Shown here: in pieces, positions 2,726 to 35,549 of the stretch | How positions within the stretch are numbered: the stretch's first letter is position 1 | Layout: the number at the start of each line of letters is the position of its first letter | Origin: an uncultured Gammaproteobacteria bacterium | Lineage (GTDB): Bacteria > Patescibacteriota > Patescibacteriia > Buchananbacterales > UBA6539 | Reading direction: 5' to 3' | DNA length: 35,912 nt | Assembly (NCBI GenBank): GCA_964470025.1 | Contig: CAYXZR010000006.1 | Location: forward strand, 1 to 35,912 | Program-made: the position numbers and the translations under genes | Notes under the pieces: generated by a model | Seen by the model: the letters and a program-made list of their open reading frames with translations, nothing else | Told to the model about the DNA's origin: nothing | Databases searched by the model: none

Positions 2726-4507
2726 TTAGTTATCCTCTAGCTCGACGTCATCACCTAGTTTGATATGTACATCTTTTAACTGTTGTTCATCAACTGTATT
2801 TGGTGCGCCCATCATCACATCTTCTGCTGCGCCATTCTTAGGAAATGCTATTACTTCACGGATACTTGGCTCGTTTTCCAGAAGCATCAATAATCTATCG
2901 ATTCCGGGAGCAAATCCTCCATGTGGTGGAGCGCCGTACTCAAATGCTCGAATCATGCCGCGGAATTTATCATCAACCTGCTCTTTGGTATACCCAGCGA
3001 TTTCAAATGCCTTATACATAATATCTGGGCGATGATTTCTGATTGCACCAGAAGACAACTCAAGTCCGTTTGCAATAATATCATACTGGTGTGCCAGAAT
3101 ATCCAGCGGTGCTTCCTTCTCTAGTGCTTCCATGCCACCTTTTGGCATTGAGAATGGGTTGTGAGAAAAAGTAACCTCACCAGTTCTTTCATCTTTTTCA
3201 TACATAGGGAAATCAACAATCCATGCCCATGCTACTACATCTTTGTCTTTTAGATTTAAAATGGTGCCAAGCTTCTCTCGCACTACTCCAAGTACTTTGT
3301 TTACAACTACTCGCTTATCAGCGCCGAAGAAAATAATATCACCCTTCTGCGCACCGGTTGTTTTAATAATGTACTCGATTTCTTCTTGAGATAAAAATTT
3401 CAAAATTGGTGATTTCAATTCTTCTTCAACAATAATGTATGCTAACCCACCTGCACCTGTATCCTGTGCGAGTTGTGTGAGCTCATCAATTTGACTACGA
3501 GTCATACCTGCTGCTTGTGGCGCGACAATTGCCTTGATAGTACTCTGTTCGTCACTCACTGCTTGTGCAAATACCTTAAACTCTGTTTTAGCAAGTCCTT
3601 CGGCAAGCTCAATCATTTCTATACCAAAACGAAGATCCGGACGATCGCTTCCATATTTTTCCATTGCTTCTTTATACGTAATTCGAGGGAAAGGTGTTTG
3701 TTGCACTTTTTTACCTGCAAATTCTTCTGTTAGTTTTACAAATAACGGCTCCATTACAGAAAACACATCTTCTGGTGTTTCTGCAAAAGCGATTTCTAGG
3801 TCGAGCTGGTAAAACTCACCTGGTGATCGATCGGCTCTTGGATCTTCATCACGAAAACATGGAGCAATTTGATAGTATCGAGGCACTCCGCCTACCATTA
3901 GCAGCTGCTTAAACTGCTGTGGGGCTTGTGGTAAGGCATAAAACTTACCTGGATGTAATCGTGACGGCACAATAAAGTCACGTGCACCTTCTGGAGATGA
4001 GCTAGTAAGTATTGGCGTATTGATTTCAATAAAGCCATTACTATGCATGTAGTCATGAATCTCTCTAATCATTTCATAACGACGTCGAAGCATACGCTGC
4101 ATTTTATCACGACGTAGATCTAGGTATCGATAACGTAACCGTAAATCCTCATTTACCTTTTCATCAAACTGCGCGATTTGAAAAGGAAGGACATTGCTCT
4201 GGTTTAACACTTCAAGCTCTTCAACAACAACTTCAACTGTCCCTGTTGGGATATTTGCATTAACTGTTTCTTTACTGCGCTCAACAACAGTGCCAGTTGC
4301 TTTCAGCACATATTCATCTCTTACCTTTTCTGCTACTTCAAATGCCCCAGTTACCTTGGGGTCAATTTGAAGCTGGACAATTCCACTGTGATCTCGAAGA
4401 TCGATAAAAATCAACCCGCCGTGATCACGCCGAGCATTAACCCACCCAGATACAGTTACTTTTTCGCTAATTTTAGATAAAATTTCTGAAGATAACGTTC
4501 GTTTCAT
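2726..4507 (-). CDS. aspS: aspartate--tRNA ligase
   Basis: Class II AspRS motifs ([20 protein letters not shown]) and full length. I prefer the start at MKRTLSS (ATG 4507); the track ORF extends to 4546 with an implausible hydrophobic prefix. Confidence 0.93.
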
Positions 4508-4579
4508 ACATGCAAGAATTATTAAAATAACAAACACATCATACAATATTATACCTCAAAAAGCAAGCAACTGAGCCAA

Positions 4580-5137
4580 TTATATAATATTTAGCTGCTT
4601 AATAAATCTCTGTGTTTTTAATTCGAAATTAATATGCTGTTCTAAAAACTTCATTAGTTGCACATGTGTTGCTACCATATGATCCTGTGGCTCATACCCA
4701 AGGTGCGTTAAGAGTTTTACAATGTACTTTTTTTCAAACACCCGCCACTCTTTCCGAGTAATACTCTCAGCTGCATCGAGCTGGCTAAAAAAATCAACCA
4801 TCATATCAAAAAGCTCATTATCTGGTTGACTCTGAGTCACAAGTGAGTCAAAAATTTCTAGCATGAAGCTTCCAAGTAGTATTTTGACACTGTTGTTTTT
4901 TATGTTTTTAAAACTATGCTCAACTCTGGCTGCGGTAAGCTGCTTGTTTTTCCCTTGTGCAAAACTTACAGCAACTACTGAAAACTGCTGCATGTGCGGG
5001 TTGAGCTTGCTAATAATTTTTTTTGTTCCCCTCCCTATCAGCGTAAGCTTGCCAAACCGTTTTGTATATACGGTAAAATACTGATCGAACTCATTGCGAA
5101 CAATAGAACGAATAACAAAAGCACTTGAGTGATACAT
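4580..5137 (-). CDS. recO: DNA repair protein RecO (short form)
   Basis: 185 aa. The N-terminal OB-fold region resembles RecO (AFVIRS....D....VYTK.FGK). It is shorter than the usual ~240 aa. Confidence 0.65.
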   Translation of the reverse strand: MYHSSAFVIRSIVRNEFDQYFTVYTKRFGKLTLIGRGTKKIISKLNPHMQQFSVVAVSFAQGKNKQLTAARVEHSFKNIKNNSVKILLGSFMLEIFDSLVTQSQPDNELFDMMVDFFSQLDAAESITRKEWRVFEKKYIVKLLTHLGYEPQDHMVATHVQLMKFLEQHINFELKTQRFIKQLNII

Positions 5138-5516: not shown

Positions 5517-6287
5517 TTACTCCTGAGTAATTATCTCTACTCCTGCTTCAGTGACAACAACTGTGTGCTCAAAATGTGCCGCATTACTTCCATCACTAGT
5601 AACAATAGTCCAGCCATCATCTAATGTTTCTATCTCATGACTACCACGTGTAATCATTGGTTCAATAGCTATAACCATTCCGGCTTTTAGCTCGACATGC
5701 TTGTGTGATGGTGAATAATAGTTTGGAATATGTGGAGGCTCATGCACATCATATCCGACCCCGTGCCCGACAAGACTTCGAATCACTCCATATTTTCCTT
5801 GGCTGTTAACATAGTTTTCTACAGCCTTAGAAATATCAGCCACTGCAGCACCAGCTTTTACCGCTTTAATCCCTGCTTCAAGTGATTTTTGAGTAACATC
5901 AAGCAGTGCTTGATCTTCTTGACTAATAACTCCTACCCCCGTGGTCTTAGCGGTATCAGTATACATACCCTTGTACTCCATACCGACATCCACGGTCAAA
6001 ATATCGCCTTCTTTGAGCACATATTCTGATGCTGGAGTATGTACAACCTCATCATTAACACTAGCGCAAATTGAGCTAGCAAAAGGCTCTTCAGATGGTG
6101 ATGGTTTATAGTTTTTAAAAGATGGTCTGCCACCGGCTTTAGTAATTTCAGCTTCGACAAACTCATCGATCTGCTTAGTAGTCACGCCGGGCTTTGCCAT
6201 GGCAATAGCAGCATTAAGAATACGTCCAATAATCTTTCCACCTTCTTTTAAACTACTAATATCTTGTTGTGATTTAATACTACTCAT
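5517..6287 (-). CDS. map: methionine aminopeptidase type I
   Basis: Metal ligands and fold motifs are present (DILTVDVG, GHGVG, IEP). The ATG at 6287 (MSSIKS) is preferred; the track uses a TTG at 6302. Confidence 0.9.
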   Translation of the reverse strand: MSSIKSQQDISSLKEGGKIIGRILNAAIAMAKPGVTTKQIDEFVEAEITKAGGRPSFKNYKPSPSEEPFASSICASVNDEVVHTPASEYVLKEGDILTVDVGMEYKGMYTDTAKTTGVGVISQEDQALLDVTQKSLEAGIKAVKAGAAVADISKAVENYVNSQGKYGVIRSLVGHGVGYDVHEPPHIPNYYSPSHKHVELKAGMVIAIEPMITRGSHEIETLDDGWTIVTSDGSNAAHFEHTVVVTEAGVEIITQE

Positions 6288-6918
6288 TGCTACTTTGTTC
6301 AATAATTTTTTCTATTTGATTATATACTTCTTCGATTGACTGAGCGCCATCTATCCGATGCAAGATATCGTGCTGTTCATAATATGGAAATACTTTTTCT
6401 GTTTCATTGTGATAAATATCCAATCGCTTTTTAATTGCTTCTGGCTGATCATCATCACGACGGTATAACTCACCGTCACATTTATCACACCTACCTTCTA
6501 CTGCTGGCGGATTAAACTGAGTATGATAACTCAAGCCACACTTACATGCCAAACGCTGAGAAAGTCGACTTACTGCTTGCTCATCAGAAAGCTCAATAAC
6601 TATAGCTAAATCTATTTTTGCTACTGTATCCAGATATTCTGCCTGCTTGGTGTTTCGAGGGTAGCCATCAAGGACAAATCCTCGCTCACAGTCTGGCTGA
6701 TTAATTCTATCAAGTACAATTTTATTTGTTAGCTCATCTGAAACTAGATTACCCTGCTTGATTACTTCTTCAACTTTTTTACCAAGCTCTGTCTGATTTT
6801 TGATATTGTAACGAAAAATATCACCGGTTGAAATATACGGGTATGAACGTCGTCGTGCGATAAGTTCTGCTTGGGTTCCTTTACCTGAGCCCTGGGGGCC
6901 AAAAATAAGAATCTTCAT
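6280..6918 (-). CDS. adk: adenylate kinase (zinc-lid type)
   Basis: P-loop GPQGSGKGT and a lid with CKCG...CDKCDG. Confidence 0.95.
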   Translation of the reverse strand: MKILIFGPQGSGKGTQAELIARRRSYPYISTGDIFRYNIKNQTELGKKVEEVIKQGNLVSDELTNKIVLDRINQPDCERGFVLDGYPRNTKQAEYLDTVAKIDLAIVIELSDEQAVSRLSQRLACKCGLSYHTQFNPPAVEGRCDKCDGELYRRDDDQPEAIKKRLDIYHNETEKVFPYYEQHDILHRIDGAQSIEEVYNQIEKIIEQSSNE

Positions 6919-6932
6919 GCTTGCCTAATTTA

Positions 6933-6953
6933 CAAAACCCGCATGTGCGGGCT
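6933..6953 (-). terminator. hairpin plus T-run between the 73-aa ORF and adk
   Basis: Minus strand reads GCCCGCACATGCGGGTTTTG. Confidence 0.5.
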
Positions 6954-6959
6954 TTATAT

Positions 6960-7181
6960 TTATAATAACTTTAAAAGGTTTTTCTTATCAATCTCACTAA
7001 TTTCCTGATCTTCTCGTAATTCGCGTACAATTCGTCTAATTTCCTCTCGGGTAACGCCACCATTATCTAATTCCTTATAGAATTTTTCTAATACATCATC
7101 GCGCTCAGTGTAATCAATGCTTCTGATTTTTAGAATTTCACGACGAATTTCTTCTCTTGTTGTAAATACATTTGAAGTCAT
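6960..7181 (-). CDS. hypothetical small charged helical protein (73 aa) with internal TREEIRR duplication
   Basis: ORF in the slot between secY and adk, followed by its own terminator. It is not IF-1 or L36 by sequence. Confidence 0.5.
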   Translation of the reverse strand: MTSNVFTTREEIRREILKIRSIDYTERDDVLEKFYKELDNGGVTREEIRRIVRELREDQEISEIDKKNLLKLL

Positions 7182-7223: not shown

Positions 7224-8504
7224 CTAGATTCCGTCGTAATCACGCATGGTCAGCTGTGATTCAATCTGTTTTACTGATTCAATAATAACCTGAACGATAA
7301 TCAAAAGACTTGTACCACCAACTGCTAGAGATTGGATACCACTTACGTTTGAAGTGATTAATGGAAGTACTGCGATAACACCTAAGAATAACGCTCCAGC
7401 TAATACGATGCGAGTTGTTACAAAGTTAAGATACTCTGCTGTATGCTGCCCTGGTCGAATACCTGGAATAAATCCACCTTGCTTCTGTAGATTTTCAGCA
7501 ATTTGATCAGGATGGAATACAACTTCTGTGTAGAAATATGTAAATGCGAATACTAATAGGAAGTAAAATACTCCATAGAATACCTGGTTCTGAAACAATG
7601 CGATTGTCCATGTAGCGATTCCTACTAGTGTTTGTGATTCGGCGTTAAGGAAAAACTGAGCAACCATTGGTGGGAATAGTACGATTGAAATTGCAAAGAT
7701 GATTGGAATTACTCCAGCCATGTTCACTCGAAGCGGTAAATGAGTGTTTACTCCTCCATAACTACTCTGGCCACGCATACGACGAGCATATGATACAGGG
7801 ATGTTTCTCTGGCCCTCTGTCATAATCACCACACCCACAATAGTCACAATTGCAACAAGTACAAACATAACTATGTTTAGTATCTGACTTTGATCAAAGA
7901 CTGAAACGACTGTTTGTTGCAGTAGTGTTGGAAACTGAGCAACGATACCCGCAAAAATCAACAATGAAATACCATTACCCACATTTTTTTCAGAGATCAA
8001 CTCACCAAGCCACATTAAAAATACTGTTCCAGCAGTCATGGTTGTCATCACAGCAAACAGTCCCCATGCTGAAAAATCGGGTAATACGTTGACTTGTGAT
8101 TGTCGAAGTAATGTAATCAAGCCATATGCCTGCAAAAATCCAAGTGGGATTGTTAGCATTCTGGTCCACTGATTAATTTTTGCTCTTCCTGACTCACCAT
8201 CTTTTGAAAGCTCTTCAAGTCTCGGTACAACCATTGTAAGTAACTGGAAGATAATTGATGAGGTGATGTATGGTGCTACACCCATTGCAACGATTGAGAA
8301 GTTGTCCATACTTCCACCTGAAAGTAGGTTTACAATACTCAAAAACTGATTACCTGCAAAAAATTCACGTAATGCTATCGTATCAACTCCTGGAATTGGA
8401 ATATGTGCAGCAATTCGAAAAATAACCAACATTGCAATAACAAAAAGAATGCTGTTTCTAATTTCTTTGACTTTCCAGACTTGGGTTAGTTTTTTGAGTG
8501 ACAT
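7224..8504 (-). CDS. secY: preprotein translocase subunit SecY
   Basis: 426 aa, multi-TM, at the conserved position after rplO. Confidence 0.95.
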   Translation of the reverse strand: MSLKKLTQVWKVKEIRNSILFVIAMLVIFRIAAHIPIPGVDTIALREFFAGNQFLSIVNLLSGGSMDNFSIVAMGVAPYITSSIIFQLLTMVVPRLEELSKDGESGRAKINQWTRMLTIPLGFLQAYGLITLLRQSQVNVLPDFSAWGLFAVMTTMTAGTVFLMWLGELISEKNVGNGISLLIFAGIVAQFPTLLQQTVVSVFDQSQILNIVMFVLVAIVTIVGVVIMTEGQRNIPVSYARRMRGQSSYGGVNTHLPLRVNMAGVIPIIFAISIVLFPPMVAQFFLNAESQTLVGIATWTIALFQNQVFYGVFYFLLVFAFTYFYTEVVFHPDQIAENLQKQGGFIPGIRPGQHTAEYLNFVTTRIVLAGALFLGVIAVLPLITSNVSGIQSLAVGGTSLLIIVQVIIESVKQIESQLTMRDYDGI

Positions 8505-30867: not shown

Positions 30868-32409
30868 TTAAGGTGCGGTAGTTAGTCGACCGAGCAATAA
30901 TTTGTAATTAATCATCACTTCGGTAGCACGAATAGCAGCAATAACCTGATCGGTGTGAACTCCCCTTGTTTCAATCCGTACTGAATTGTCCCAGGTGATC
31001 GTTGCTTCAACAGGAGCATCAGTCTGGCCACCAGGTGGAATGTGCGCATCAAAGTCAGATAGTCGAGGGATGCTAAATGGTAATTCTAGCTGCGGCTCAA
31101 TATCTCGCAACGCATTCATGAAGGCATCATAGCCACCTGCCCCAGCAGCATGCGCTTCAAACTCTTTGTCACCTACGGCTATACGAATTGACGCAACAGG
31201 GCGGACTGACCTGTTGGTTGTGATAGTTGCGTGTGTCACCCTGAAAGCATCTTCTACTTCCAGCTTGAGAACTTTAGCAACTATGAATGGTAGATCCTCT
31301 CTGGTTACCGACTCTTTCATGTCACCGCGCCGGATAACTTCATTCAATACCAATGCTCGCTCTTCTGGACTCAGATCAAAACCAAGCTCGGCTACATTAA
31401 ACTCAATATTAGCTCTTCCAGACAGCTTACCTAGGGCATAGTGACGCGATCGACCGAAACGTTGTGGTGCAAGCACGCTGCCGTAGAGATCTCCTTTCTT
31501 GTCACCATCGGCATGTATGCCTGCTGTTTGCGTAAAAGCATTTTTTCCGAGAATTGGACAATTGGTTGCGACCTTTTGCCTACTTGCAGCTTGCACCAAC
31601 GCGCTGACAGCACTAAGCCGTGTTTCATCTACTGCGGTTTGGCGCTCAGTGTGATCACGAATAGCTGCGACCACTTCTGCCTGTGCTGCATTACCAGCGC
31701 GCTCTCCTAATCCATTTACCGTGACATGGACTCCAGCGACTCCACAACGCGCAGCGGCAATAGTGTTTGCAGTTGCAAAGCCGTAATCATTGTGCGCATG
31801 AAACTCAAATGTCAAACGATCATTATATCGCTCAAGTGTTTCTGAGAGAAACTGCTCGACCTGCCAAGGGTTTAATACCCCAAGCGTATCAGGCAACAAC
31901 ACTCGATCAACTTCCATAGTGCAGAGCGCATCAAGTAGTTGCCAAACGTACTCAGAATCATCCTTGATGCCGTTTGACCAATCCTCTAGATACACGTTAA
32001 CTGTTACCCCATGAGAACGTGCGTATGCAACAGTGTCAGTGATATCTTCTATGTGCTGCTCAAGTGACTTGCGCAACTGGCCACTGCAATGCTTACGAGA
32101 GCCTTTGCAAAGTAGATTCATCCGCTGACAGCCTGCGGCAATAAGCCAATTAACTGACAGCTCATGATCTACAAAACTCAGCACTTCAACTCGGTCTTGC
32201 ATTCCCACAGTAAGTGCCCAGTCCATAATGACTCTGACTGCTTGTTGCTCACCGTCGCTGACACGACAAGAAGCGACTTCGATTCGGTCTACTCCAACTT
32301 GTTGCAACAACATTTGTGCAATTGCCAATTTTTCTTCAGCGGCAAATGCAACTCCTTGTGTCTGTTCGCCATCGCGAAGGGTTGTGTCCATGATACTGAT
32401 TGTACTCAT
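30868..32409 (-). CDS. cimA: citramalate synthase / 2-isopropylmalate synthase family enzyme; the Ile-type leader favours CimA
   Basis: 513 aa with TLRDGEQ, HAHNDYGFATAN and GERAGNA motifs and a LeuA-type C-terminal domain. The substrate call rests on the Ile-rich leader and is an inference. Confidence 0.75.
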   Translation of the reverse strand: MSTISIMDTTLRDGEQTQGVAFAAEEKLAIAQMLLQQVGVDRIEVASCRVSDGEQQAVRVIMDWALTVGMQDRVEVLSFVDHELSVNWLIAAGCQRMNLLCKGSRKHCSGQLRKSLEQHIEDITDTVAYARSHGVTVNVYLEDWSNGIKDDSEYVWQLLDALCTMEVDRVLLPDTLGVLNPWQVEQFLSETLERYNDRLTFEFHAHNDYGFATANTIAAARCGVAGVHVTVNGLGERAGNAAQAEVVAAIRDHTERQTAVDETRLSAVSALVQAASRQKVATNCPILGKNAFTQTAGIHADGDKKGDLYGSVLAPQRFGRSRHYALGKLSGRANIEFNVAELGFDLSPEERALVLNEVIRRGDMKESVTREDLPFIVAKVLKLEVEDAFRVTHATITTNRSVRPVASIRIAVGDKEFEAHAAGAGGYDAFMNALRDIEPQLELPFSIPRLSDFDAHIPPGGQTDAPVEATITWDNSVRIETRGVHTDQVIAAIRATEVMINYKLLLGRLTTAP

Positions 32410-32584
32410 GTGCCTGCTCCTGTGGTAGTTTGTGAAAGATCAATTTGAAAAACAAGACAAACAAAAAATCCAGCTGGTGGCTGGACTCTCAAATCGTTTT
32501 GTTCAACGTTTACTAGAAAGCGGCCACCCGTGTAGGCTGGATAATAATGCTAATAATTGAAATGTTAGCGTATTGTGCTTTCAT
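32336..32584 (-). CDS. Ile-rich leader ORF MKAQYANISIISIIIQPTRVAG...; literal frame stays open for 82 codons
   Basis: ATG at 32584. There are 6 Ile in 8 positions. By manual translation the first in-frame stop is TGA at 32338-32336, inside cimA. A TAG-TAA pair (32514-32509) lies one frame off, at the position where a leader stop would be expected. This ORF is not in the supplied track, so it needs re-checking. Confidence 0.45.
32461..32484 (-). terminator. attenuator terminator in the cimA leader
   Basis: Minus strand reads TCCAGC-CACCA-GCTGGA followed by TTTTTTGTTGTC. Confidence 0.6.
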
Positions 32585-32590
32585 ATAATT

Positions 32591-32619
32591 ACTCTATCGC
32601 TTATCACCTATAGTGTCAA
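32591..32619 (-). promoter_or_regulatory. promoter (TTGACA-17-TAGAGT), 6 nt upstream of the leader ATG
   Basis: It abuts the tRNA-operon terminator T-run. The spacing predicts a leaderless or near-leaderless leader ORF. Confidence 0.45.
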
Positions 32620-32623
32620 ATAT

Positions 32624-32661
32624 AAAATAAAAAGCCCAATGAAGGTGGACCTACATTGGGC
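32624..32661 (-). terminator. intrinsic terminator closing the tRNA / structured-RNA unit
   Basis: Minus strand reads GCCCAATG-(12 nt)-CATTGGGC followed by TTTTTATTTT. Confidence 0.7.
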
Positions 32662-32701
32662 AAACTAAGAACAAAAGAACAAAACTACTAAAGAGCAAAT
32701 G

Positions 32702-32783
32702 TGGTCGGGCTAGAAGGAATCGAACCTTCGACCATGTGATGCTAGACTGCATCACACCGCTCTACCGACTGAGCTATAGCCCG
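32702..32783 (-). tRNA. atypical tRNA (82 nt with CCA) with Pro-like acceptor and an 8-9 bp anticodon stem
   Basis: The acceptor (CGGGCTA/TAGCCCG, A73), D arm (GCTC-AGTCGGTA-GAGC) and T arm (GAAGG-TTCGATT-CCTTC) are normal. The anticodon arm is TGTGATGC-AGTCTA-GCATCACA. Confidence 0.6.
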
Positions 32784-32886
32784 AGTGGAGAAAGAGCAGA
32801 TGTGGGGAATCATACTATCATCCACTCTTCCTCCGTGGGTTTGCCGGCGCAACTCTCTATGAAAGCCAGTGCCTGGCAAAAATTTC
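32784..32886 (-). ncRNA. structured spacer: 16-bp imperfect helix plus a small hairpin
   Basis: 32787-32802 pairs with 32819-32834. All three non-Watson-Crick positions are G-U on the minus strand and A-C on the plus strand. Confidence 0.45.
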
Positions 32887-32965
32887 AGGGGATGACAGGA
32901 GTCGAACCTGTGAGCTACTAAGCCACGTTGGCAAAGATACGCTCTAGCAATTAACTAACATCCCC
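32887..32965 (-). pseudogene. degenerate tRNA-Gly(GCC)-like element, no CCA
   Basis: The acceptor (GGGGATG/CATCCCC, U73), T arm (ACAGG-TTCGACT-CCTGT) and the loop heptamer TTGCCAA are all present, and that heptamer is identical to the one in the neighbouring tRNA-Gly. The anticodon and D stems do not pair, and the variable region is 11 nt. Confidence 0.5.
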
Positions 32966-33160
32966 TTTGTTGCGTCCACTACCTGTACAGCTGCCGTGCC
33001 CTGGTAGACGCAATGCTTGGGAACAAAAATTCGACGGGAGGTATGAATACCAGCAAAGAGCTGGTCCAAAAGATACGAGTGAAACTCGATCTCCAGTACA
33101 GACTGGTCCTCCCTTTGCGCTAGCATGAACGACTAAGAGTCGCTGGCATTGCGCAATAAA
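32966..33160 (-). ncRNA. structured spacer: multi-branched fold
   Basis: Helices 32970-79/33004-13, 33036-41/33108-13 (enclosing three 5-bp hairpins), 33115-20/33151-56 and 33129-34/33138-43. Confidence 0.45.
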
Positions 33161-33237
33161 TGGAGCTGCTGACGAGACTCGAACTCGCGACATCTTCCTT
33201 GGCAAGGAAGCGCTCTGACCAACTGAGCTACAGCAGC
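33161..33237 (-). tRNA. tRNA-Gly (anticodon GCC), CCA encoded
   Basis: Clean cloverleaf with loop UUGCCAA and U73. Confidence 0.9.
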
Positions 33238-33465
33238 TCTGAAATTTTTTGGGGAATGGAGTGTTCCAGGTCACCATCCCCCAAAGGTTGCAAACTTGTT
33301 ACTACTTGCAACCTGTTAGAAGCTGAGGTTGATTCCTCAAGAACTCTGTCTTTTGAGTCCGAGCAGCTACAAAGGCGCTCGCTTCCCTGCTCTACTCACG
33401 ATTACTGCTAGCCTGGCTGCGCGACTAACATCATGAGTAGCTTGCACCTGGCGCTGGTGCAAGAT
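33238..33465 (-). ncRNA. structured spacer: seven back-to-back hairpins
   Basis: Helices tile 33251-33462 almost without gaps. The coordinates are listed in the findings. Confidence 0.45.
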
Positions 33466-33542
33466 TGGCACACGTGGCCGGATTCGAACCGACGACAAGC
33501 GCATTGAGTTTTGCGCTGCTCTACCAACTGAGCTACACGTGC
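33466..33542 (-). tRNA. atypical tRNA with an 8-nt anticodon loop (AAACUCAA), G73, CCA encoded
   Basis: GCACGTG-TA-GCTC-AGTTGGTA-GAGC-A-GCGCA-AAACTCAA-TGCGC-TTGTC-GTCGG-TTCGAAT-CCGGC-CACGTGT-G-CCA. All other arms are canonical. Confidence 0.6.
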
Positions 33543-33551
33543 ACTAAAGCT

Positions 33552-33627
33552 TGGAGGACGTGATAGGATTCGAACCTACGACCAATGACTCCCAAAGTCA
33601 CTGCTCTGCCATCTGAGCTACACGTCC
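33552..33627 (-). tRNA. tRNA-Pro (anticodon UGG), CCA encoded, with non-bacterial-type G1:C72/U73 acceptor
   Basis: Cloverleaf with loop UUUGGGA. The acceptor and D arm are near-identical to those of the adjacent 8-nt-loop tRNA. Confidence 0.8.
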
Positions 33628-33914
33628 GGTGAAACTTTAGCGATTTTGAGCCCTCTCTCCGTGGACCGACCACATTTCCCTGCAGCGGAGAGAGGGCTGA
33701 CTGAGCAGGGGTACTGCCTGCAGGGAAATTTTGACTACATTGTCAAAGAAATTGATGGGTAGCGAGTCAGCTATTACGCACTGTTTCAGCTTTGGCTACT
33801 TCTAAGCCACAAGCACTCGCCACCCACCTCCTAGCCACACTATGATGGTATATCCCTTCACGGGGCCAGGAAATCTGTATATAAATATTTCAATTGCGTT
33901 TTTACGCAATTACT
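33628..33914 (-). ncRNA. ~285-nt structured 5' leader of the tRNA unit
   Basis: It contains an 11-bp helix closing a ~47-nt domain (33757-67/33815-25), interleaved perfect 13-bp and 11-bp helices (33649-33728) and a hairpin at 33892-33911. No credible ORF is present. Confidence 0.45.
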
Positions 33915-33943
33915 TTTATATATTATTTTTTACATCGTGTCAA
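33915..33943 (-). promoter_or_regulatory. promoter (TTGACA-17-TATAAA) driving the tRNA / structured-RNA unit
   Basis: Consensus -35 box, 17-nt spacer and near-consensus -10 box. Confidence 0.55.
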
Positions 33944-33950
33944 GTCATAT

Positions 33951-33978
33951 AAAAAAGTCACTGTCGTAACAGTGACTT
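33951..33978 (-). terminator. intrinsic terminator after the hydrolase gene
   Basis: Minus strand reads AAGTCACTG-TTACGA-CAGTGACTT followed by TTTTTTATATG. Confidence 0.75.
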
Positions 33979-33989
33979 AAGGTGCGAGG

Positions 33990-35549
33990 TTAGTAGGAAC
34001 TCCAATCTCCTACTGACGAGGTGTCCGGAGCTTCGAAGTTCGCGTACAGAATCCTGTCCTGCGAAATTGTGAATGAAATACTATTCGCAGTTTCTGATGT
34101 GCTCCAGCCATTAAATGTGGCGCCATCTTCTGGTACTGCGGTTAGCGTGACCATATCGCCGACGTTGTAGACTCCGCCGGGATTTTCTGGTGAAACAAGT
34201 ACATTGCCATTTCCACTTCCGAGAAGATTGACTCTGAGGACCCTTTCTGTCTCAGCAAGTTGAATTGTATGCATCTCACGCATACCATCATCAGATGTAA
34301 AGAAGAATGTCTGACGATAAGCATCGCCGGGGACTTCATATGGTGGGAAGATGTACTCGTCATCAAGCCGAGCCTCGAACCCAAGTTCGCTAGTAAAGCA
34401 GTCTGGGTTGACCGAGTTCACTGCACGATATCTGGAGTTGCGATCAGCTGGTCCGCCACCTAAGTAGTGATTACCACCGGGGACGGCAGTGAATTTCCAA
34501 TTGGCAATCTGCCAGCTGTCTGTATCGCCAGGTACTTGATAGTCATCAATGTCTTCTTGAGCGACTCCTGCGAAGCCAAACAACTTGTCACGGTAATCCC
34601 AGAAGTGCTGCGGGACAACGAGGCCATCGTTTAGTCCATGCATGACATAGACTCTGCTGACTTTATTGCCAAAGGTTGCCGCTAGTCCTGCGTGACGCTG
34701 TGGTGCACGCATTAACCGCTCCATGCTTTTTGTGGTTGTTAGGTCAGTGCTGTTGAGTGACCATGCGTTCACAATCCAGCCGGAGCCGTTGGCGTCACCA
34801 TCTGTACCGAGGGTGTAGCCGTTATTTTGCACGTCGTCTTGCGTCGAGATGAGCGTTAAGCCAGAGCCAGCATATACTTCGGCGAATGCCTTGGGTACTG
34901 CCTGAACAACTTGAAGTGCAAGGTGTGCTCCACCTGAGCCGCCAAGCATGTAAAGGCGTTGACGGTTGAGCGGCTTACCTTGATCTTCGAAATACTGAAG
35001 GGTTGCCTTCACCCCATTAATCACGTCGGCGACTTGAATATCGCCGTAATCATAGGGTGACATGTATCCCATGTTGCGGTAGAAGATTTTCACATAGACG
35101 ATGTCTTTTGTGTCCATCCACACTCGCAGCTCATTGAAGTTTGCATTTGCTGGATCATCAGCAAACACTCCTTGGTTGCTTGGACAGTCGGAAGTTCCGA
35201 TGCCGCCAAGCTCGACATACAAGCCCGTGCTTGCAGTGAGGGTTTCCATGCCGCCTTGAGGCAACACGACTACAGCTGAAATAGCAGCCGGGGTCTGTTG
35301 GCCGTCAGAGGAGCAGTTTGCAAATAGCCTTGAATCTGTGGCACCAGGATCACTGGGAACCTGCGACTCAAAAGTCAGATGCACTTTTGGATACACTGCC
35401 GGGGCAGACTTGCGTTGCACAATTGGGTTGATCTGTGGATCAAACTCAGGGACATAAAATATTTTTCCCTGAGCTTGAACGATGGCAGTCTGGAAAAGCC
35501 AGACAAGGGTTGCAAGGATTGTCATAATATAAAAGAGCGACTGCTTCAT
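33990..35549 (-). CDS. secreted alpha/beta-hydrolase (esterase/peptidase-like) with C-terminal divergent InlB B-repeat-like domain
   Basis: 519 aa with a signal peptide ending AQA-QG and a GxSxG nucleophile elbow (GGSGG). HGLNDGLVVP resembles the Asp/His region. The C-terminus LLGSGNGNVLVSP...VTLTAVPEDGATFNGWS matches the bacterial repeat pattern. Confidence 0.7.
   Translation of the reverse strand: MKQSLFYIMTILATLVWLFQTAIVQAQGKIFYVPEFDPQINPIVQRKSAPAVYPKVHLTFESQVPSDPGATDSRLFANCSSDGQQTPAAISAVVVLPQGGMETLTASTGLYVELGGIGTSDCPSNQGVFADDPANANFNELRVWMDTKDIVYVKIFYRNMGYMSPYDYGDIQVADVINGVKATLQYFEDQGKPLNRQRLYMLGGSGGAHLALQVVQAVPKAFAEVYAGSGLTLISTQDDVQNNGYTLGTDGDANGSGWIVNAWSLNSTDLTTTKSMERLMRAPQRHAGLAATFGNKVSRVYVMHGLNDGLVVPQHFWDYRDKLFGFAGVAQEDIDDYQVPGDTDSWQIANWKFTAVPGGNHYLGGGPADRNSRYRAVNSVNPDCFTSELGFEARLDDEYIFPPYEVPGDAYRQTFFFTSDDGMREMHTIQLAETERVLRVNLLGSGNGNVLVSPENPGGVYNVGDMVTLTAVPEDGATFNGWSTSETANSISFTISQDRILYANFEAPDTSSVGDWSSY

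Follow-up and report, generated by a model that had tools for sequence, protein, structure and literature searches.

Two tRNAs and three tRNA mimics among strand-specifically folded spacers in a non-coding locus of a candidate phyla radiation bacterium

Introduction

What does a bacterial locus produce when tRNA-shaped genes alternate in it with long segments of folded RNA and no protein appears to be encoded? The question is raised by a 35,912-nt stretch of DNA (contig CAYXZR010000006.1 of assembly GCA_964470025.1; this whole stretch is referred to as the window). On its minus strand lies a unit of ~1.3 kb, free of open reading frames (ORFs), in which two normal tRNAs and three anticodon-less tRNA look-alikes are set among ~800 nt of folded RNA. 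The source is an uncultured, ultrasmall bacterium of the candidate phyla radiation (CPR, Patescibacteria). A large part of all bacterial diversity belongs to the CPR and, to our knowledge, almost nothing is known of its non-coding RNAs.

An initial annotation had proposed that the unit is bounded by a promoter and a terminator, that the structure of its minus-strand RNA is under selection and that a novel or divergent large structured RNA might be present. The reading tentatively favoured here is that of a tRNA-punctuated non-coding CPR operon in which the spacers are structured RNAs under selection. Functional spacers would mean that the unit supplies ~800 nt of new structured RNA and a clear case of tRNA shapes used beyond decoding.

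Borders and order of the unit

The open reading frame list contains no credible ORF inside the unit, as the initial annotation had stated. The two borders are as follows.

33915 to 33943, minus strand: promoter-like site TTGACA-17 nt-TATAAA (-35 hexamer at 33943-33938, -10 hexamer at 33920-33915), read from the sequence
32624 to 32701, minus strand: U-rich trailer and intrinsic terminator (stem 32661-32654/32641-32634, then UUUUUAUUUU), from the consensus scan and the helix table

The terminator of the upstream gene (33978-33955, minus strand) ends just 5' of the promoter-like site. This site had been described as a consensus promoter. It is present and its -35 hexamer is perfect, but the -10 hexamer agrees at only 5/6 positions, ending in A, and the consensus promoter scan omits the site because T is missing at position 6. 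Other promoters read in the window (those of the leaders of leuA, aroG and a small ORF) combine a perfect TTGACA with a -10 hexamer ending in G (TATAAG, TATATG); as these hexamers are also imperfect, the site of the unit was counted as a plausible, though not proven, promoter. No internal promoter-like site was found on the minus strand within the unit. A promoter-like site and a terminator, with neither a credible ORF nor a further promoter-like site between them on the minus strand, suggest one transcription unit.

Read along the minus strand, the order is promoter, 5' hairpin, a leader of ~283 nt, tRNA-Pro(UGG), 9 nt, a gene with an 8-nt loop, spacer S1, tRNA-Gly(GCC), spacer S2, a weak tRNA-like gene, spacer S3, an 82-nt mimic, trailer and terminator. 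The spacers thus lie between complete cloverleafs. Their GC content (~0.50, against 0.40-0.48 around the unit) is higher than that of the surroundings, as had been noted, by a modest margin.

The five tRNA-shaped genes

All five tRNA or tRNA-like genes counted in the initial annotation were located; they are numbered 1 to 5 here in the order of transcription.

33552 to 33627, minus strand: tRNA-Pro(UGG), canonical anticodon arm, G1:C72/U73 acceptor, CCA encoded (ARAGORN; Rfam 67.0 bits, 33555-33627)
33466 to 33542, minus strand: tRNA-like gene with an 8-nt "anticodon" loop AAACUCAA, G1-U72 and a GCCA end (ARAGORN "tRNA-??? (actc)"; Rfam 52.7 bits, 33469-33542)
33161 to 33237, minus strand: tRNA-Gly(GCC), canonical, U73, CCA encoded (ARAGORN; Rfam 71.3 bits, 33164-33237)
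32887 to 32965, minus strand: tRNA-like gene with a 33-nt irregular arm replacing the anticodon arm, no CCA encoded (Rfam 27.3 bits; fold z -4.66)
32702 to 32783, minus strand: 82-nt mimic with C1:G72, A73, CCA and normal D and T arms (Rfam 55.3 bits, 32705-32783; fold)

The gathering score of the Rfam tRNA model RF00005 (29 bits) is reached by four of the five, and ARAGORN also calls four; gene 4, with intact acceptor and T arms and a weak D arm, falls just below the cut-off. The criterion applied for a decoding tRNA was an anticodon stem of 5 bp, or 6 bp at most, with a 7-nt loop. The norm is 5 bp, with 6 bp found in tRNA-Pyl and in one mitochondrial tRNA (PMC7609411). Only two genes are of this decoding type, namely Pro-UGG (33627-33552) and Gly-GCC (33237-33161), a distinction that had been missed. 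Set against the same norm, the arms of the other three (gene 2 with its 8-nt loop, gene 4 with its irregular arm of 33 nt and gene 5 with its 9-bp stem) show that these genes are tRNA mimics and cannot decode.

Gene 2 (33542-33466) is a paralogue of gene 1 with a loop longer by one base (repeats D1 and D3; fold). The 5' half of gene 4 is a paralogue of tRNA-Gly(GCC), with which AGAGCG-N5-UUGCCAA is common (repeat D7). In gene 5 a 9-bp stem capped by the 6-nt loop AGUCUA takes the place of the anticodon arm, and the acceptor is of the bacterial tRNA-Pro type, like that of the genuine tRNA-Pro(GGG) of the window (26617-26541). Encoded CCA ends and normal RNase P-type acceptor stems are found in four of the five cloverleafs.

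Unlike the unit's tRNA-Pro(UGG), tRNA-Pro(GGG) has the bacterial C1:G72/A73. Positions 1:72 and 73 are tRNA-Pro identity elements read by bacterial-type ProRS, and the difference at these positions puts in question the charging of tRNA-Pro(UGG) with proline by the ProRS of the host.

Strand-specific folding of the spacers

The minimum free energy (MFE) of each non-tRNA segment was compared with 200 dinucleotide-preserving shuffles. Sliding-window z-scores with 20 shuffles were too noisy to rank the region, and the 200-shuffle folds and a hairpin census were used in their place.

Leader, 283 nt: minus strand MFE -110.5 kcal/mol, z -6.63; plus strand MFE -96.1, z -4.05
S1, 228 nt: minus strand MFE -90.7 kcal/mol, z -5.42; plus strand MFE -76.0, z -2.95
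S2, 195 nt: minus strand MFE -67.8 kcal/mol, z -3.38; plus strand MFE -65.1, z -3.36
S3, 103 nt: minus strand MFE -41.7 kcal/mol, z -5.11; plus strand MFE -32.8, z -2.22

The MFE helices of these segments contain 28 G-U pairs when the minus strand is folded and 12 when the plus strand is; 1x1 A-C mismatches number 2 and 6, respectively; the base composition is balanced, with A, C, G and U nearly equal. The census of uninterrupted hairpins (at least 10 bp, loops up to 40 nt) gave 8 on the minus strand of the 809 nt of spacer (9.9 per kb) and 2 on the plus strand. Hairpin density in the remaining window is 2.05 per kb, so that the minus strand of the spacers shows a 4.8-fold excess. The five helices singled out in the initial annotation are all in the helix table with their G-U pairs. 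Its description of the spacers as almost completely consumed by helices was overstated, as 62.5% of the bases are paired in the MFE folds. The structure of the spacers is therefore beyond chance and specific to the transcribed strand, the pattern expected under selection on RNA, and on this point the annotation is supported.

These results bear on the possibility that the spacers are evolutionary debris or selfish structured insertions, such as the remains of duplicated tRNA genes or of hairpin-forming elements that spread among the structural-RNA loci of CPR genomes, and are tolerated without being used. In favour of this, gene 4 is a visibly rearranged duplicate of tRNA-Gly(GCC), gene 2 is a paralogue of gene 1, and a 15-nt direct repeat (D8, described below) flanks gene 5. 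Neutral decay, however, should affect both strands alike, whereas here G-U pairs are kept and A-C mismatches avoided on the transcribed strand. No interruption is seen in helices as long as 12 to 16 bp, palindromes of recent origin in the DNA would be perfectly Watson-Crick and without G-U, and no similarity of the spacers was found to tRNAs, to each other, to the insertions of related loci discussed below or to the rest of the window. Debris is considered an unlikely explanation. As the z-scores, the G-U/A-C asymmetry and the hairpin excess fit neither neutral debris nor fresh DNA palindromes, the functional reading was ranked first. Even as debris, the locus would document tRNA gene duplication and decay into structured non-tRNAs in reduced genomes. 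The idea that the spacers are interrupted tRNA genes was rejected, as they contain no extra or hidden T-arm motifs.

Anatomy of the leader and spacers

The elements predicted outside the cloverleafs are the following.

33893 to 33910, minus strand: 7-bp hairpin AUUGCGU AAAA ACGCAAU at or near the transcript 5' end (MFE helix)
33754 to 33871, minus strand: leader domains, an imperfect hairpin (33871-33829) and then a three-way domain (MFE, helix table)
33649 to 33747, minus strand: 3' part of the leader, in which a 6-bp hairpin (33747-33730) is followed by a pair of interleaved helices without mismatch (inverted repeats I5 and I2, hairpin list)
33666 to 33677, minus strand: leader segment AAAUGUGGUCGG, 12/12 complementary to the 3' end and trailer of the last mimic (32708-32697) (inverted repeat I4)
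33238 to 33465, minus strand: S1, 228 nt, with an 8-bp hairpin, an 18-bp bulged hairpin, a four-way junction and two 11-bp hairpins (MFE, helix table)
32966 to 33160, minus strand: S2, 195 nt, with a nested hairpin, a four-way junction and a 10-bp hairpin (33013-32970) (MFE, helix table)
32878 to 32888, minus strand: CUGAAAUUUUU, 11/11 complementary to 33249-33239 (inverted repeat I9, global fold)
32784 to 32886, minus strand: S3, 103 nt, with a branched hairpin and a 16-bp hairpin (MFE, helix table)

The hairpin at 33893-33910 is also flagged as terminator-like on both strands. The three-way domain of the leader is closed by a 14-bp helix (33828-33815/33767-33754) with two G-U pairs. Further 3', the interleaved helices of 12 bp (33729-33718/33685-33674) and 13 bp (33698-33686/33661-33649) would have the topology of an H-type pseudoknot; the MFE fold can hold one of them, not both. 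The four-way junctions of S1 (33386-33318) and S2 (33113-33036, closed by GGGAGG/CCUCCC) are cloverleaf-shaped and flanked by stable hairpins, and neither contains a T-loop or D-loop motif or gives a tRNA score. S3 ends on its 3' side with the 16-bp hairpin (32834-32819/32802-32787), which has three G-U pairs.

The direct repeat, CCACAU(C/U)UGCUCUUU, is found at 32805-32791 and 32704-32690 (minus strand), on either side of the last mimic. The first copy forms the 3' strand of the S3 hairpin of 16 bp and the second overlaps the CCA end of the mimic and the trailer; given the repeat, the 5' strand of the hairpin could pair alternatively with the trailer.

Several complementarities span longer distances. 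The leader segment AAAUGUGGUCGG may pair in vivo with the end of the last mimic and its trailer. The helix formed by CUGAAAUUUUU, which is present in both the MFE and the centroid fold of the whole transcript, would enclose tRNA-Gly, S2 and the fourth gene; its pairing is AU-rich and hence weaker evidence. Around the first tRNA, 33642-33635 pairs with 33549-33542 (8 bp). Perfect matches of at least 11 nt at more than 150 nt distance amount to 3 k-mers, against 0.19 expected in shuffles (P ~0.02). Overall (P ~0.02-0.04) this is no more than suggestive.

Such pairings count in favour of purely cis-acting spacers, serving as folding insulators or as processing and stability elements of the precursor. 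On this explanation the hairpins would stop near-identical, partly palindromic tRNA paralogues from mispairing, and leader-trailer helices would present the tRNAs to nucleases, as in rRNA operons. In keeping with it, genes 1 and 2 both have a palindromic CACGUG acceptor core, a YrlA model threads across the two (see below), and the complementarities enclose tRNA modules (8 bp around gene 1, 11 bp from tRNA-Gly to gene 4 and 12 bp between the leader and gene 5). Against it, ~800 nt is a large cost for insulation when ordinary tRNA operons have short spacers, the long-range matches are modest and one is AU-rich, and the two multi-branch domains (33386-33318 and 33113-33036) are more elaborate than processing stems require. 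A role confined to cis is considered unlikely.

Searches for known RNA families

Rfam 15 was searched at gathering score with the whole window and at E<=10 with 32300-34300 (both strands, permissive filters). The unit matches tRNA only. A sub-threshold match to YrlA (41.4 bits, cut-off 69) was rejected as an artefact: it joins the 3' half of gene 1 to the 5' half of gene 2, and the basal stem of the alignment, which in YrlA binds Ro, is full of non-pairs. The covariance models of GOLLD, ROOL, OLE, raiA and HEARO, which the initial annotation had suggested running, gave no match at E<=10 in 32300-34300. That annotation had also seen no core of RNase P, SRP or tmRNA; in agreement, no RNase P RNA, SRP RNA, 6S RNA or tmRNA was found by Rfam (gathering score, E<=10) and ARAGORN reports no tmRNA. 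Rfam finds no rRNA within the window. A T-box leader was rejected, with no match at E<=10, no U tract after the 13-bp leader helix and no downstream ORF. So was a leader-peptide attenuator of the unit itself, as the leader has no short ORF rich in a single amino acid and followed by a terminator, and the window no LPxPP anywhere.

Homologues of the spacers were not seen in reference genomes, which were examined via the flanks of cimA relatives only and with no RNA pattern run there, and none turned up in pattern scans of metagenomes or viral contigs. When the spacers were compared with 13 related CPR loci (blastn, nhmmer of the unit), only the tRNA parts matched. Patterns of the odd tRNA loops gave nothing in viral contigs (both loops) or in metagenomes (8-nt-loop pattern only), and the leader pseudoknot junction and the D-arm patterns of the relatives had no matches in viral contigs. 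The tRNA-Pro(UGG) pattern proved too generic as a probe. The T-arm-plus-trailer pattern matched mostly ordinary tRNA-Pro genes, so that the U-rich trailer is not family-specific.

A phage or mobile tRNA array was rejected: the flanking genes are cellular, the window contains no integrase, and the exact-pattern viral scans (two odd genes, leader motif) were empty. By blastn only generic tRNA similarity to phage genomes was found, ~75-77% to T4-like phages. Tangentially, 98 viral-contig stretches (L201-L298) contain tRNA-like genes with a distance of 30-36 nt between D arm and T arm, against the usual ~26. In several, the anticodon arm has given way to a stem of 8-10 bp ending in a tetraloop or another short loop, and the anticodons given by ARAGORN are spurious. 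The Pro-type acceptor of the window's mimic is in none of the 98, and the genes are unrelated.

The family searches bear on the possibility that the 1.3 kb as a whole forms a single ornate RNA of large size, or the subunit of an RNA assembly, in the manner of GOLLD and ROOL, with the tRNA-like domains integral and unexcised. The long-range complementarities could close its domains, and the interleaved leader helices have the topology of a pseudoknot. Yet none of the five large-RNA models matched, the encoded CCA ends and RNase P-type acceptor stems of four cloverleafs predict excision, local hairpins dominate, and no homologues back tertiary or long-range pairing. A chain of local hairpins and small multi-branch domains, broken by complete cloverleafs, lends no support to a single RNA of this type, which is regarded as very unlikely. 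The novelty proposed at the outset thus stands in so far as no described family covers the unit, and there is no evidence for one GOLLD/ROOL-like RNA.

A mimic family and its leaders in CPR relatives

The EF-G of the window is 75-79% identical to proteins of Candidatus Falkowbacteria, Buchananbacteria and the Patescibacteria group. These identities place the source in the CPR, in its Buchananbacteria/Falkowbacteria part. Loci around fusA were taken from ten EF-G relatives; the 13 related loci compared comprise 12 obtained from relatives via EF-G together with L314. In most of the fetched loci tRNA-Pro(GGG) lies upstream of the str operon, with an M50 peptidase gene (in several also an L28 gene) before rpsL, and the synteny upstream of the str operon is partly kept between window and relatives.

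The design of gene 5 (32783-32702) recurs in three of these loci, at L300 4478-4559, L303 1098-1179 and L326 3549-3639. The family was defined by a C1:G72/A73 acceptor, normal D and T arms, a 9-bp helix for the anticodon stem and a variable loop. The stem has exactly 9 pairs in all four members, in almost entirely different sequence, although with four sequences the statistics of this conservation are weak. The loops are of 6 (window), 3 (L300), 3 (L303) and 10 nt (L326). The L300 and L303 mimics are 82 nt long with an encoded CCA; that of L326 has 91 nt, and CUG for CCA. The last mimic of the window thus appears, from these alignments, to be a conserved RNA kept by compensatory changes and not a decaying pseudogene.

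In four relatives, a promoter, a short ORF and an intrinsic terminator are found downstream of leuA, followed by tRNA-like genes. The units and their proline-rich leader ORFs are:

L300, 4330-4700: MNYQINPTLPVPPSLP
L303, 911-1330: MKYQIILSLPVPPSLP
L324, 2718-3110: MYIHTNSILPVPPSLL
L326, 3384-3860: MNKHLNSILPTPPCC

LPxPP is invariant in the ORFs, as is GGAAGUNGG after the stop codon; the terminator stem varies in sequence with its pairing kept. The first gene of the unit is the 9-bp-stem mimic in L300, L303 and L326, and the second is tRNA-Pro-derived and fast-evolving. The LPxPP leader and terminator look like an attenuator controlling a tRNA or tRNA-mimic locus. In the portions available, neither the literature about tRNA genes of the CPR nor that about their attenuation by leader peptides in general describes such units, and we know of no description of Pro-acceptor mimics with a 9-bp stem behind a proline-rich attenuator. 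Control of a tRNA locus by the supply of its own charged tRNA would be rare, and a proline-rich attenuator ahead of tRNA-like genes would be such a case. The idea that the 16-bp hairpin of S3 is a relic of the relatives' antiterminator was rejected: the alignment does not support it, and neither an LPxPP ORF nor a GGAAGUNGG motif occurs in the window.

Structured insertions of 60-105 nt occur in the D, anticodon and T loops of tRNA-like genes of the relatives. The second gene of the L326 unit (3653-3829) keeps a UGG anticodon arm and has a D-loop insertion of ~105 nt; that of L324 (2917-3074) has lost its anticodon loop and has a D-loop insertion in common with L326 (UUCCGAGU), the two insertions being ~95-105 nt long. 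In the second gene of L303 (~1197-1299) the insertion is in the T loop, and in L314 (~1590-1700) in the D loop. L324 also has a Gly-type tRNA-like gene (3482-3639), located upstream of pheA and downstream of a Phe leader attenuator; ~85 nt are inserted in its anticodon loop, and it scores 51.6 bits with the Rfam tRNA model across 158 nt. Rfam searches with the insertions of L324, L326 and L303 matched no family.

At L327 4715-4960 and L330 2395-2960, tRNA-Pro 5' halves are followed by 110-140-nt elements closed by CCCCGC...GCGGGG. These have a conserved GGGGUAAAGGUGCUC and adjoin complete tRNA-Pro(GGG) genes; in L330 a YbaK/ProX-type tRNA_edit gene lies ~900 nt downstream. The elements could be mini-introns, integration scars or mobile elements.

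Both the loop insertions and the CCCCGC...GCGGGG elements beside tRNA-Pro halves count on the side of debris in the explanation of the window's spacers, as do the insertion sequences for which CPR rRNA genes are known (PMC11270868). Taken as a whole, the comparison shows a trait of the clade, namely RNAs of tRNA shape whose arms do not decode and to which further structure has been added, with at least one family conserved. The CPR host and the recurrence, partly with conservation, of tRNA-like genes with non-anticodon arms and large insertions in its relatives had escaped the initial annotation.

Proposed function of the unit

The preferred reading, a tRNA-punctuated operon with selected structured spacers, starts from the anatomy, the strand-specific structure, the three non-decoding genes and the one mimic family conserved in relatives, which have been established above. 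In this model one sigma-70-type promoter would drive a transcript of ~1.29 kb to the intrinsic terminator. The five cloverleafs would be cut by tRNA-processing enzymes, with RNase P acting at the 5' sides and a 3' endonuclease or trimming at the CCA ends. The expected products are two decoding tRNAs (Pro-UGG and Gly-GCC), three acceptor/T-arm mimics and four hairpin-rich RNAs, namely the 283-nt leader and the spacers of 228, 195 and 103 nt. Selection on the transcribed strand would keep the spacers folded. Capped by stable helices, they should resist exonucleases and persist as separate RNAs in a fixed ratio with the tRNAs and mimics.

A number of points weigh against this reading. The usually invariant T is missing from the -10 hexamer of the promoter. 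The z-score of S2 is alike on both strands. The evidence for selection on spacer structure comes from one sequence, in which recently inserted hairpin-forming elements can also give good z-scores, and without homologues no spacer helix has covariation support; the nearest comparison genomes are those at 75-79% EF-G identity, and the unit is absent from their fetched flanks. The extra structure of the relatives lies inside tRNA-like genes and not between them, so that the parallel to the window is loose. Finally, the single transcript, its processing, the stability of the spacers and any trans-acting role are inferred from sequence.

A bolder version is possible but doubtful. In it the unit would be a new kind of RNA operon specific to a CPR lineage, whose anticodon-less mimics, with bodies of the Pro and Gly types, offer handles for processing and also sense the translation apparatus or act as its decoys. 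About four novel structured RNAs would be released by the mimics or would join them in one particle. The further element of this version, that in relatives the mimic family is switched on by the proline-codon leader peptide in an undescribed circuit controlling tRNA supply, is put forward with the same reserve.

Whichever account holds, the finding is real and unusual, it falls into no described family, and it comes from a lineage with recurring related oddities. The relatives provide three leads: the family of 9-bp-stem tRNA-Pro mimics, the proline leader attenuator and the lineage-wide structured insertions in tRNA-like genes.

Host genome and neighbouring genes

The genes of the window are cellular: the str, S10 and spc operons, SecY, AspRS, ScpAB, a DAHP synthase and two HMGL-family synthases. 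The flanking order is cimA, leuA, aroG and then the str, S10 and spc operons. The cimA-like gene (30868-32409) has a best identity of 59-60%, its nearest relatives being Sumerlaeota-like, and no tRNAs were found near these relatives. Its protein is 34% identical, over a local alignment of 86 residues, to an HMGL paralogue at the edge of a relative's locus. The gene may have been acquired by transfer into the CPR genome. The gene upstream of the unit (33990-35549) encodes a 519-aa S9 peptidase with an InlB B-repeat, for which no homologue was found at E<=1e-10 among 5.8 billion proteins; the exact sequence is recorded nowhere else.

Several leader peptides are encoded on the minus strand of the window. 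An Ile-rich peptide, MKAQYANISIISIIIQPTRVAAF (32584-32513), and a terminator (32490-32464) lie between the terminator of the unit and the cimA-like gene and have the features of a classical leader-peptide attenuator, probably for this isoleucine-pathway gene. A Leu-rich peptide, MNYSYAQNSLLLSLLLSQPQGGSLIDA (30241-30158), precedes leuA, a Phe-rich peptide, MKAQHSNYFFSFFFTDL (28286-28233), precedes the DAHP synthase gene (aroG), and the peptide MKTQPHNLIKQIIKVVLVKSD (30794-30729) precedes an ORF of ~100 aa at 30622-30320. Relatives have Phe-rich leaders ahead of pheA. Across this CPR clade amino-acid attenuators seem to be in general use, contrary to what would be expected of bacteria usually described as lacking amino-acid biosynthesis.

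A second RNA of the window was also seen. Upstream of tRNA-Pro(GGG), a conserved RNA of ~215 nt with its own promoter occurs at 26890-26685 (minus strand) and in eight CPR relatives:

L299: ~5632-5850
L300: ~7559-7775
L302: ~526-745
L303: ~5822-6038
L324: ~5786-6002
L326: ~6778-7000
L327: ~4462-4676
L330: ~1124-1335

The RNA is closed by the helix GAACUUCAC/GUGAAGUUC; AAGUUUUGGGACAA and AGCCAAA(A) are invariant in it, and in the window it has its own terminator. Compensatory changes are seen in 24 of the 49 predicted pairs, and Rfam gave no match even at E<=10.

Comparison with known systems

rtT RNA is derived from repeats downstream of tRNAs. Like the segments of the unit, rtT (rttR) of the E. 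coli tyrT operon is a non-tRNA RNA in a tRNA operon; it is tied to processing of the tyrT transcript and is a precedent for a stable RNA obtained from the transcript of a tRNA operon (10.1101/2024.07.17.603846). The unit differs in that four unrelated structured segments alternate with the tRNAs, in that no RtT or sRNA family of Rfam matches, and in its host, which is a CPR bacterium and not an enterobacterium.

In phage T4, RNAC and RNAD are located in the tRNA cluster. These (species 1 and 2 RNAs) are small, stable products that accompany the tRNAs, with a function as yet unknown (PMC9697503), and are a second precedent for what is proposed here. The unit, in contrast, is chromosomal and lies among cellular genes, and its viral similarity is of the generic tRNA kind.

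GOLLD and ROOL are large structured non-coding RNAs beside or interleaved with tRNA genes; the linker of GOLLD sometimes contains tRNAs, and the function of both is unknown (PMC12286853). Among large RNAs, GOLLD is the nearest precedent. The unit has no covariance match to them at E<=10, no definable conserved core and no phage or prophage setting, and its modular hairpins are cut by five cloverleafs.

YrlA, which adjoins rsr, has its open end on the anticodon side and its closed end on the acceptor side. In YrlA and other tRNA mimics, as in those of the unit, the acceptor/T-arm/D-arm half is kept and a longer helix stands for the anticodon arm. The mimics of the unit, however, have normal 5' and 3' acceptor ends with CCA, and the window contains no rsr gene.

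In rRNA operons, long structured spacers with embedded tRNAs are found, and flanking complementarity encloses the mature RNAs. There is no rRNA in the window, and the enclosing helices of the unit are short (8-12 bp), with modest statistical support.

In overall design the last gene resembles the tRNA-Pro mimics of the relatives, which have the same C1:G72, A73, 9-bp stem and non-anticodon loop. Theirs stand behind a promoter, an LPxPP peptide and a terminator and are followed by a second tRNA-Pro-derived gene, whereas the mimic of the window, where LPxPP is lacking, ends a much longer structured unit. In kind, the locus would be a tRNA operon whose transcript also yields structured RNAs and, in this case, tRNA mimics.

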